DNA of 19,084 bases from a virus (taxonomy: Duplodnaviria > Heunggongvirae > Uroviricota > Caudoviricetes): IMG/VR virus record IMGVR_UViG_2609459794_000003; one strand, given 5' to 3'. The notes below the pieces were generated by a model. It was not told where the DNA came from. It did not search any database and saw only the letters and a program-made list of their open reading frames with translations. Below, piece by piece: positions 2,325 to 4,702 of this stretch. The position numbers and the translations under genes are program-made. Positions within the stretch are counted from its first letter, which is position 1. Every line of letters begins with the position of its first letter.

Positions 2325-2540
2325 TCACCGTTCCTTAAAGGCGCCGTTTAACATACCGATTGCCAGACTTAAATGAGTCGGTGTGAATCCCATCAGCGTT
2401 ACCGTTTCGCGGTGCTTCTTCAGTACGCTACGGCAAATGTCATCGACGTTTTTATCCGGAAACTGCTGTCTGGTTTTTTTGATTTCAGCATTAGCCTGAC
2501 GGGCAATGCTGCGAAGGGCGTTTTCCTGCTGAGGTGTCAT
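2325..2540 (-). CDS. hypothetical phage protein (71 aa)
   Basis: ORF MTPQQENALRSIARQANAEIKK...; its ATG overlaps the TGA of the upstream 27-codon ORF (ATGA coupling). The listed 104-aa ORF is this gene plus an upstream extension in the same frame. Confidence 0.5.
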   Translation of the reverse strand: MTPQQENALRSIARQANAEIKKTRQQFPDKNVDDICRSVLKKHRETVTLMGFTPTHLSLAIGMLNGAFKER

Positions 2541-2620
2541 TGAATAAGTCCCATGTCGGCAAGCATAAGCACACAAAATATGAAGCCCGCTGCCAGAAAA
2601 ATGCATTCCGTGGTTGTCAT
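2537..2620 (-). CDS. putative 27-aa hydrophobic (single transmembrane-like) peptide
   Basis: ATG ACA ACC ACG GAA TGC ATT TTT CTG GCA GCG GGC TTC ATA TTT TGT GTG CTT ATG CTT GCC GAC ATG GGA CTT ATT CAA TGA = MTTTECIFLAAGFIFCVLMLADMGLIQ. GGGAGG sits 4 nt upstream of the ATG, and the ATG overlaps the methyltransferase stop while its own stop overlaps the next ATG (ATGA at both ends). Confidence 0.35.
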   Translation of the reverse strand: MTTTECIFLAAGFIFCVLMLADMGLIQ

Positions 2621-3174
2621 GCAGCCTCCCGACGGGCAAGAATCCTTGAGCCGAACGCCATCAACTCTCCACGATCAACGGTCGTAAAGTGGCAGTGTGT
2701 ACGGGGGTATGCGTGCCAGATAATGAGCATCGAGCCTTTATTATTTCCACTGACGGGTTTCTCAGTGAGTGGGTTAATAAATGCCAGTCGTCCTGCCGTG
2801 ATGAATCTGACCTCACTGGCGGTTTGTATCGCTTCATGAAACCATCCGACAGATGTGTCAGCAGGCAATAACATTACACATCCCACACTACTGAATTTGT
2901 TTTCAGTGGCTGCCTTTTTCACAAAAGGGGAAATATTGCTGTATGGTGGATTCAACCAGACATAACCAGAGGCATATCCCATTGCTTCAGGCCATGAAGT
3001 GGTTAATGTGTTCTGCTCCTGTGAGATAAAAAGCCGACATAGTCGGTTTTTTTCGCTGGCGGCAGCATCAAGTTGAAAAACGAACTCTGCATTAAGCGCA
3101 GCAAAAATCTCTGGTGGTGTGCGCCAGCTGTCGCGATGTTCGGCAGGAGTATTGCTTCCGGTGAAATCAGTCAT
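2617..3174 (-). CDS. phage-type DNA N6-adenine methyltransferase (Dam family)
   Basis: 185-aa ORF with the NPPY catalytic motif (GYVWLNPPYSN) and the N-terminal ...DSWRTPPEIFAALNAEF... pattern typical of small phage Dam methyltransferases. Confidence 0.85.
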   Translation of the reverse strand: MTDFTGSNTPAEHRDSWRTPPEIFAALNAEFVFQLDAAASEKNRLCRLFISQEQNTLTTSWPEAMGYASGYVWLNPPYSNISPFVKKAATENKFSSVGCVMLLPADTSVGWFHEAIQTASEVRFITAGRLAFINPLTEKPVSGNNKGSMLIIWHAYPRTHCHFTTVDRGELMAFGSRILARREAA

Positions 3175-3328
3175 ACAGCCCCCGTTTATTATTTATCTCC
3201 TCAGCCAGCCGCTGTGCTTTCAGGGGATTTCGGATAACAGAAAGGCCGGGAAATATCCAGCCTCGCTTTGTAACGGAGTAGACGAAAGTGATCGCGCCTA
3301 CCCGGATATTATCGTGAGGATGCTTCAT
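3167..3328 (-). CDS. possible small ORF (53 aa) bridging exo and the methyltransferase
   Basis: ATG overlaps the exo stop (ATGA) and the last codons overlap the methyltransferase start (ATGACTGA). Translation [53 protein letters not shown]. No homology recognised; it is below the 60-aa cutoff of the ORF track. Confidence 0.3.
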
Positions 3329-3920
3329 CGCCATTGCTCCCCAAATACAAAACCAATTTCAGCCAGTGCCTCGTCCATTTTTTCGATGAACTCCGGCACC
3401 ATCTCGTCAAAACTCGCCATGTACTTTTCATCCTGCTCAATCACGACATAATGCAGGCCTTCACGCTTCATCCGCGGGTCATAGTTGGCAAAGTACCAGG
3501 CATCTTTTCGTGCCACCCACATGCTGTACTGCACCTGGGCCATGTAAGCCGATTTTATGGCTTCGAAACCACCGAGCCGGAACTTCATGAAATCCCGGGA
3601 GGTAAACGGGCATTTCAGTTCAAGGCCGTTGCCATCACTGCATAAACCATCGGGAGAGCAGGCGGTGCGCATACTTTCGTCGCGATAGATGATCGGGGAT
3701 TCAATAACATTCACGCCGGAAGTGAACTCAAACAGGGTTCTGGCGTCGTTCTCGTACTGTTTTCCCCAGGCCACTTCTTTCCTGAGCGGGGCTTTGCTAT
3801 CACGTTGTGAACTTCTGAAGCGGTGATGACGCCGAGCCGTAATTTGTGCCATGCATCATCCCCCTGTTCGACAGCTCTCACGTCGATCCCGGTACGCTGC
3901 AGGATAATGTCCGGTATCAT
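3325..3920 (-). pseudogene. exo: lambda-type exonuclease (Red alpha) disrupted by an ~85-nt internal deletion and frameshift
   Basis: Two overlapping ORFs in different frames together match lambda Exo as recalled: N-terminal [51 protein letters not shown] (3711..3920) and C-terminal ...[19 protein letters not shown]...FVFGEQWR (3325..3852). The span is 596 nt versus 681 nt expected for a 226-aa Exo; the junction is at about 3767-3773. Confidence 0.8.
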
Positions 3921-4702
3921 GCTGCCACCTTCTGCTCAGTGGCTTTCTGTTTCAGGAATCCAAGAGCTTTCACTGCTTCGGCCTGTGTCAGTTCTGACGA
4001 TGCGCGAATGTCGCGGCGAAATATCTGGGAACAGAGCGGCAATAAGTCGTCATCCCATGTTTTATCCAGGGCGATCAGCAGAGTGTTAATCTCCTGCATG
4101 GTTTCATCGTTAACCGGAGTGATGTCGCGTTCTGGCTGACGTTCTGCAGTGTATGCAGTATTTTCGACAATGCGCTCGGCTTCATCTTTGTCATAGATAC
4201 CAGCAAATCCGAAGGCCAGACGGGCACACTGAATCATGGCTTTATGCCGTAACATACGTTTGGGATGCGACTGCCACGGCCCCGTGATTTCTCTGCCTTC
4301 GCGGGTTTTGAATGGTTCGCGGCGGCATTCATCCATCCATTCGGTAACGCAGATCGGATGATTACGGTCCTTGCGGTAAATCCGGCATGTACAGGATTCA
4401 TTGTCCTGCTCAAAGTCCATGCCATCAAACTGCTGGTTTTCATTGATGATGCGGGACCAGCCATCAACGCCCACCACCGGAACAATGCCGTTCTGCTTAT
4501 CAGGGAAGGCGTAAATTTCTTTCGTCCACGGATTAAGGCCGTACTGGTTGGCGACGATCAGCAATGCGATGAACTGCGCATCGCTGGCATCACCTTTAAA
4601 TGCCGTCTGGCGAAGAGTGGTGATCAGTTCCTGTGGGTCGACAGAATCCATGCCGACACGTTCAGCCAGCTTCCCTGCCAGCGTTGCGAGTGCTGTACTC
4701 AT
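3917..4702 (-). CDS. bet: Red beta single-strand annealing protein (lambda Bet)
   Basis: 261-aa [40 protein letters not shown]... matching lambda Bet along its full length as recalled; its stop overlaps the exo ATG (ATGA). Confidence 0.95.

Follow-up and report, generated by a model that had tools for sequence, protein, structure and literature searches.

A probable overlooked small membrane-protein gene ahead of orf61 in lambda-type phages

Genes and start/stop overlaps around the 27-codon ORF

We analyzed a stretch of 19,084 nucleotides (nt), referred to as the window herein, from the tailed-phage record IMGVR_UViG_2609459794_000003, with a focus on a 27-codon open reading frame (ORF) on its minus strand at 2537–2620. 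The product of this ORF, MTTTECIFLAAGFIFCVLMLADMGLIQ, is predicted to be a one-helix membrane micropeptide. The surrounding region (2325–3328, minus strand) belongs, as judged from its sequence, to a defective lambdoid prophage, where it makes up the exo-xis part of the early-left (pL) operon. We call the prophage DLP12-type because its annotated relatives are integrated beside tRNA-Arg and fimZ. The ORF listing and the sequence itself place all genes of the chain on the minus strand in the order bet, exo, a 53-amino acid (aa) ORF, a Dam methyltransferase, the 27-codon ORF, a 71-aa ORF, a hairpin, and orf73.

A previous sequence-only reading of this DNA held that bet, the 71-aa gene, and all genes between them are linked by ATGA or 8-nt overlaps, and this can be read directly from the sequence. 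The stop of bet (RecT-type recombinase, 261 aa; 3917–4702) overlaps the exo start by ATGA at ∼3917–3920 (GCATGATA). The end of exo is joined by ATGA at 3325–3328 (GCGATGAAG) to the 53-aa ORF, an orf60a homologue (DUF1317; PF07026, E 1.6e-33; 3167–3328), which in turn overlaps the Dam gene (2617–3174) by 8 nt at 3167–3174 (ATGACTGA). The Dam gene and the 27-codon ORF share ATGA at 2617–2620 (GCATGACA), and the 27-codon ORF and the 71-aa ORF (2325–2540) share ATGA at 2537–2540 (CAATGACA). A Shine-Dalgarno-like GGGAGG within the last Dam codons (2625–2630) stands 4 nt ahead of the ATG of the small ORF (2620), a short but usable spacer that agrees with the earlier description of this motif as correctly placed. 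The start of the 71-aa ORF carries a weak Shine-Dalgarno sequence. Overlaps of this kind are how the lambda pL operon is normally built and do not set this locus apart; the chain of overlaps, the Dam gene, and the terminator are all unremarkable and have been described before.

The chain is physically interrupted at exo, because an 85-bp deletion frameshifts this gene. The deletion was identified by BLAST against strain KH_005, whose locus is otherwise 100% identical. Its junction lies at 3767–3773 and is flanked by 7 nt of microhomology, leaving an exo pseudogene (3325–3920) made up of a 69-aa fragment (3711–3920) and a 175-aa fragment (3325–3852).

The chain had also been said to end at an intrinsic terminator. 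A terminator-like hairpin followed by a U-run is indeed present at 2278–2304, with eight pairs and a 3-nt loop (2304–2286) followed by UUUUUUAUUG. The genes do not end there, however: a 31-codon ORF (2233–2328) shares GTGA (ATGA in lambda) with the stop of the 71-aa ORF and extends across the hairpin, and 9 nt past it begins the next gene of the operon on the same strand, an orf73 homologue (TraR/DksA zinc-finger protein, 73 aa; 2005–2226) recognized by annotation and profile match. A second terminator-like hairpin, inside orf60a at 3242–3264, matches in position the predicted t1 of lambda and phi24B; judging from the lambda fragment in the Red plasmid pKD46, it may be the classical tL3. The hairpin at 2278–2304 matches t2 of the same two phages. 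Both t1 (Table 4) and t2 were predicted earlier as terminators in lambda and phi24B, and lambda transcript levels determined by reverse transcription quantitative PCR were lower downstream of t2 (PMC4195576).

Spread of, and selection on, the 27-codon frame

To describe the 27-aa peptide, we used the 19-residue Kyte-Doolittle mean, for which a value >1.6 was taken as the criterion for a membrane span. The best segment of the peptide, FLAAGFIFCVLMLADMGLI, reaches 2.33, and the peptide ranks first in hydrophobicity among the 99 ATG-ORFs of 20 to 40 aa in the window. This prediction is consistent with the claim of the sequence-only reading that the ORF encodes essentially one transmembrane helix.

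Homologous loci (∼170) were gathered from IMG/VR, genomes, and GenBank, and each variant allele was counted once. The peptide is full-length in 175 of 176 matching phage records, including lambda (J02459, 30928–31008), 933W, and VT2-Sakai. DNA of the small ORF is present in 3,064 of 5,426 complete Escherichia coli genomes, usually behind orf63/DUF1382. The orf63 gene of lambda and VT2-Sakai ends in an ATGA that it shares with the start of the small ORF, as Dam does here. The sequence-only reading had named stop codons or frameshifts in homologues as evidence against the ORF; what we found was an ORF intact, with both ATGA junctions, at 165 of 169 homologous loci. The four exceptions are two error-ridden assemblies, one locus that keeps the ORF without its downstream ATGA, and one locus with a 14-nt deletion. 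Every other intact copy is flanked by ATGA at both ends, whatever the upstream gene.

Synonymous-substitution bias in homologous prophages had been proposed as a check of the ORF, and it was positive. Counted over 167 loci (17 haplotypes), the 27-aa frame has 15 synonymous (S) and 7 non-synonymous (N) changes; all 15 third-position changes are synonymous (p=1.1e-5; omega ∼0.14). For the same DNA, the frame annotated as an Orf61 extension gave S=3 and N=19 and the third sense frame gave S=4 and N=18. The neighboring 71-aa gene has an omega of ∼0.20. As an internal control we used the 31-codon ORF, which showed no codon-position bias (7/5/7). Since this ORF is also start/stop-overlapped, overlap alone does not produce the synonymous pattern.

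Taken together, the comparative data make it very probable that the 27-codon ORF is a genuine gene that is translated into a hydrophobic peptide with one helix. It is not listed as a gene in the phage reference records or in current RefSeq annotation; some older GenBank annotations name the exact 27-aa protein "hypothetical protein". The peptide belongs to no Pfam, PHROG, NCBIfam, or PADLOC family, and its sequence was not found in any paper that we searched. What is new here is the ORF itself, very likely an overlooked small membrane-protein gene of lambda-type phages.

Several observations weigh against this conclusion. The family is shallow: tblastn over 50,697 phage records returned no deep homologues, only the same locus, and all copies, confined to Escherichia lambdoid phages, have at least 88.9% peptide identity. 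Because of this shallowness, the selection signal rests on polymorphism-level variation. The small ORF is dispensable in nature, since in related phages the gene coupled directly to Orf61 is Dam or another one, and in Escherichia sp. E1V33 (locus L009, 2430–2500) the 14-nt deletion joins the coupled ATG to the Orf61 frame, yielding a 93-aa-like fusion and a natural knock-out of the peptide. Behind orf63 there is no good Shine-Dalgarno sequence for the small ORF. One antisense frame shares its third positions with the 27-aa frame and also departs from chance, although it fits worse (S=11, N=11, p=0.002). Lastly, a review citing lambda ribosome profiling gives only 7-aa and 31-aa extra ORFs in the region.

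The alternative that survives best, though we judge it improbable, is that translation of the small ORF serves solely as a relay, in which two successive AUGA re-initiations carry ribosomes to the Orf61 start and the peptide itself is functionless. The ATGA at both ends of the small ORF together with the weak Shine-Dalgarno sequence at the Orf61 start would suit such a relay, as would the lineage restriction of the family, the loss of the small ORF in natural variants, and the single direct ATGA junction that relatives use in its place. A relay, however, would not constrain amino acids, yet every third-position change in the 27-aa frame is synonymous and omega is as low as in the neighboring gene; the overlapped 31-codon ORF shows no such bias. 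Moreover, the product is an unusually clean hydrophobic helix. We therefore favor a coding function for the 27-codon frame over a relay.

Module boundaries: the Dam slot and the start of Orf61

The gene upstream of the small ORF encodes a 185-aa Dam-family N6-adenine DNA methyltransferase that scores above both curated cut-offs (PF05869, 188.9 bits against 28.1; TIGR01712, 164.9 bits against 97.05). Its translation contains the catalytic motif WLNPPYSN (NPPY), and PADLOC classes it as an orphan methyltransferase. Alignment with PhiR30_1, E. coli B, VT2-Sakai, and lambda revealed that Dam fills the orf63 (DUF1382) slot exactly, from ATG to TGA. Homology to lambda and VT2-Sakai is lost at the Dam/orf63 ATG and regained exactly at the ATG of the small ORF, so Dam-for-orf63 is a clean ORF-for-ORF cassette exchange with its joints exactly at the start and stop codons. 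In E. coli B strains, an N-terminally truncated Dam is fused to a ren remnant in DLP12. In E. coli B and BL21, the DLP12 remnant retains this truncated Dam together with the small ORF and Orf61.

These boundaries do not agree with the idea that the peptide is locked to the methyltransferase: homology resumes at the ATG of the small ORF, and the Dam arrangement occurs in 244 of the 5,426 complete E. coli genomes, the truncated form of E. coli B included, compared with the 3,064 that have the small ORF. Nor does the proposed stoichiometric lock to Dam and a 71-aa partner follow from the junctions, as translational coupling alone does not fix stoichiometry. By these comparisons, the small ORF and "orf61" form one conserved module in lambda and Shiga-toxin (Stx) phages that has no special tie to Dam.

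Dam homologues at 69 to 84% identity are found in Enterobacter-, Klebsiella-, and Lelliottia-type phages. In most of them, the very next gene, joined by ATGA, encodes a 72-aa protein (MTPANENAIRAACRRCTEEI...), and the small ORF is missing; the GGGAGG is kept at the 3′ end of these distant Dam genes and is used there for the Orf61 homologue. We found no equivalent small hydrophobic ORF near Dam at the same position in the distant relatives. In two distant Dam phages, mutually related small hydrophobic ORFs of 32 and 38 aa (e.g., MTALKKHIGRWSDVYLYLAVVAYLMWLAAVIS) lie upstream of Dam (L188, 285–383; L192, 1096–1212), and small membrane peptides may be a recurring trait of such early operons. In a mosaic variant (L110, 1741–2716; L190), orf60a or Dam is separated from Orf61 by an uncharacterized 250-aa protein (MIHFHGGPITPDTCALKAW...); there, the N-terminus of Orf61 differs (MTIEHNNALRS...) and the small ORF is missing.

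The 72-aa Enterobacter-type protein aligns end to end with the 71-aa protein of the window (29% identity over 68 residues, E 2e-13). The Enterobacter/Klebsiella/Lelliottia family is almost uniformly 72 aa with the start MTP, and the alignment begins at MTP in 24 sequences. Because these homologues start with MTP and are ATGA-coupled directly to Dam, the true Orf61 of the window would start at MTPQQENA and comprise 71 aa. The 71-aa protein matches phrog_303 (E 1e-34) over profile positions 23–93, and its model, computed with the family alignment, has three helices from residue 3 (predicted local distance difference test score, pLDDT, 89.6). A PDB fold search with this model gave no match with E <1. 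Two labels for Orf61 were left unconfirmed: "ZapA" (PF05164), the name used in some records, with 15.9 bits against a gathering score of 23.8 (E 0.017), and "homeodomain", for which no PDB match had E <1. "Divergent" E. coli-type Orf61 hits at 49 to 77% identity turned out to be frameshifted low-quality assemblies or mosaic N-termini. From this alignment, the small ORF appears as an extra cistron of ∼80 nt found only in the Escherichia lambdoid lineage.

Reference annotations read the DNA of the small ORF in another frame, as an N-terminal extension of Orf61 (MHFSGSGLHILCAYACRHGTCS), resulting in 61 aa in lambda and 93 aa in Stx phages. Were these annotations correct, Orf61 would begin at an ATG inside or upstream of the small ORF and the 27-codon frame would be open by chance. 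The extension frame is open in all copies, the long form is annotated in VT2-Sakai, 933W, and lambda and represented in phrog_303, and the E1V33 deletion brings the coupled ATG into precisely this frame. Nevertheless, we regard this explanation as quite unlikely. Of 22 changes, 19 are non-synonymous when read in the extension frame, whose ATG has no usable ribosome-binding site, while the distant homologues are 72 aa long, begin MTP, and are coupled directly to the upstream gene. The 71-aa form alone folds confidently in the model, and PGAP (NCBI) and some phage annotators already call it. In the published work, AlphaFold and RoseTTAFold disagree on residues 1–23 of the 93-aa phi24B Orf61 and place a three-helix fold in residues 24–93 (PMC8614690), and the long form was insoluble when overexpressed (PMC8614690, PMC6213356). 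On the strength of the homologues, the 61- and 93-aa "Orf61" annotations appear to be wrong at the N-terminus.

Laboratory lambda (NC_001416; positions 1540–1725 of locus L005) carries one extra A in the A-run of orf61, for which the window equivalent is ∼2455–2465. Due to this +1 frameshift, lambda Orf61 from the true start would be only 29 aa, a possible reason for its weaker orf61 phenotypes relative to phi24B. The same extra A is present in ∼16 independent lambda-contaminated assemblies. A scan of species-representative genomes for Orf61 gave mostly lambda contamination in unrelated assemblies; lambda DNA contigs occur in assemblies labeled Shewanella, Bradyrhizobium, Pseudomonas, Paenibacillus, Kitasatospora, and others (L010–L023), evidently as spike-in or reagent contamination.

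The 31-codon ORF was also considered as a second small gene and was ruled out by its absent codon-position bias and relic-like C-terminus. Over its last 24 aa it shares 54% identity with the C-terminus of P0177, an Orf61-like protein, and by this likeness it is probably a relic of the 3′ end of an Orf61-type gene. It is also probably the 31-aa "orf2313" reported from lambda ribosome profiling.

Elsewhere, the window contains cI/cro/O/P-like genes, emrE, ybcK, rusA, and a Q-like gene. An IS3-family element occupies 1–1310, with ORFs of 108 and 296 aa, an ALIL frameshift pseudoknot (859–975), and terminal inverted repeats (TGAACCGCCCCGGG...). It starts exactly at the window start and cuts off a xis-like helix-turn-helix gene (1308–1475), and the integrase side of the prophage is lost at this end.

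Published mutants, proposed role, and comparison with known systems

A published lambda "orf61 frameshift" was made by deletion of a single C, marked in the primer CTTCATATTCTGTGTG*TTATGCTTGCCGACAT (Bloch et al. 2014; PMC4195576). We mapped the deleted C to nt 52 of the 27-codon ORF, where codon 18 begins; the true Orf61 ATG follows 29 nt downstream. In a plasmid assay, this mutant delayed phage development after induction by mitomycin C or H2O2 (PMC4195576). Later orf61 deletions (PMC6213356) take out most of the small ORF as well. The frameshift phenotype shows that some reading frame through the DNA of the small ORF matters; which one is not told by the mutant alone.

We consider it likely that the 27-codon ORF is a genuine overlooked cistron of the orf61 module, AUGA-coupled on both sides, whose product is probably a small inner-membrane pro-lytic effector. 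Ribosomes terminating at the UGA of orf63 (in most phages) or of Dam (here) would re-initiate at the small-ORF AUG within AUGA, with the GGGAGG at the Dam end adding what would be a real ribosome-binding site. The second AUGA, at the stop of the small ORF, would then hand the ribosomes to the true Orf61. The peptide, presumably made early after infection or induction, would insert into the inner membrane and contribute to the "pro-lytic" phenotypes ascribed to orf61. The phenotypes at stake are more lysogeny and host survival upon deletion of the region and delayed development in the 1-bp frameshift (PMC6213356, PMC4195576). More tentatively, a selected 27-residue inner-membrane peptide of lambda and Stx phages, acting on a host membrane target, might own part or all of these phenotypes. 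In lambda, the peptide could be the sole functional product of the locus, because the true Orf61 is cut to 29 aa.

A different role had been suggested by the sequence-only reading, in which the peptide belongs to a toxin/antitoxin or host-takeover module. The peptide is small and hydrophobic, as are the Ibs, ShoB, and TisB-type toxins, and the prophage region is known to affect host survival (PMC6213356). It is nonetheless very unlikely that the peptide acts as a membrane toxin of a type I-like kind or serves, in functional association with Dam, in a toxin/antitoxin or exclusion module. More than 90% of small-ORF occurrences are without Dam, and the Dam relatives at ∼75% identity are without the small ORF. 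The ORF is set in a polycistronic operon by overlap and has no promoter or 5′ UTR (untranslated region) of its own. A toxin/antitoxin arrangement found no counterpart in a separate transcription unit, a conserved antisense promoter, an Rfam RNA, or a PADLOC hit: PADLOC had no hit to either the peptide or Orf61, Rfam matched the window only at the pseudoknot of the IS element, and the predicted folding of the small-ORF RNA is on a par with that of shuffled sequence (z = 0.22). At the level of consensus scans, no antisense small RNA with its own promoter was found at the small ORF; the sole antisense promoter-like match (2614–2643, plus strand) is located in the Dam part, which is not conserved, and is directed away from the ORF.

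Least credible is that the synonymous pattern arises from an antisense gene (plus strand, 2553–2687): despite the coincident third positions, 4 of the 15 third-position changes alter the amino acid in its frame, three synonymous sites fall outside it, its C-terminal two-thirds enter the unrelated upstream module (44 aa here, 61 aa in lambda, with differing sequences), and it would oppose the pL operon with no conserved promoter found.

With the 27-codon ORF read as a membrane-peptide gene, several published results would change their meaning. Lambda is the reference temperate phage, and both the choice between lysis and lysogeny and the induction of Shiga-toxin prophages are influenced by the exo-xis region. 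If the reading is true, the orf61 reference annotations of lambda, 933W, VT2-Sakai, and phi24B are wrong at the 5′ end; two genes were removed or hit by the orf61 deletions in the literature and by the frameshift mutant, so that the phenotypes of these mutants need re-assignment; and Orf61 biochemistry used a 93-aa construct with 22 spurious N-terminal residues, which could explain its insolubility. The mis-annotation and mis-attribution of "orf61" would then very likely have come about because the 27-codon gene was overlooked.

The peptide resembles type I toxins (Ibs, ShoB, TisB, Hok) in size and hydrophobicity and differs from them in that our scans revealed neither an antisense RNA nor an independent transcription unit for the small ORF. 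The Dam protein is a clear member of the phage orphan Dam methyltransferases (PF05869/TIGR01712), with its NPPY motif, a full-length profile match, and no partner restriction enzyme; its position in the orf63 slot of the exo-xis region is unusual. As in AUGA termination-reinitiation, known in general from the lambda pL operon and trpB-trpA, stop and start codons overlap in tetranucleotides, here at five consecutive junctions, and the downstream ribosome-binding sites are weak. The difference is that a whole 27-codon cistron lies between two AUGA junctions, where relatives have a single one.

Small membrane proteins of <50 aa, the class generally associated with Hemm and Storz, likewise consist of about one hydrophobic helix with short polar ends, and they are missed by gene callers and detected through conservation and start-site context. 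Compared with these, the family described here is very narrow (Escherichia lambdoid phages), and its translation appears tied to the stop/start overlap rather than to a site of its own. The closest system is the exo-xis region orf60a-orf63-orf61-orf73 of lambda and Stx phages studied by the Wegrzyn and Donaldson groups (PMC6213356, PMC8614690, PMC4195576). The operon and order are the same, and orf60a, the small ORF with Orf61, t2, and orf73 are 95 to 98% identical in nucleotide sequence to lambda and VT2-Sakai, whereas the window has Dam for orf63 and a broken exo. In that literature "orf61" is one ORF of 61 or 93 aa; here, it is split into a putative 27-aa membrane-peptide gene and a 71-aa gene.

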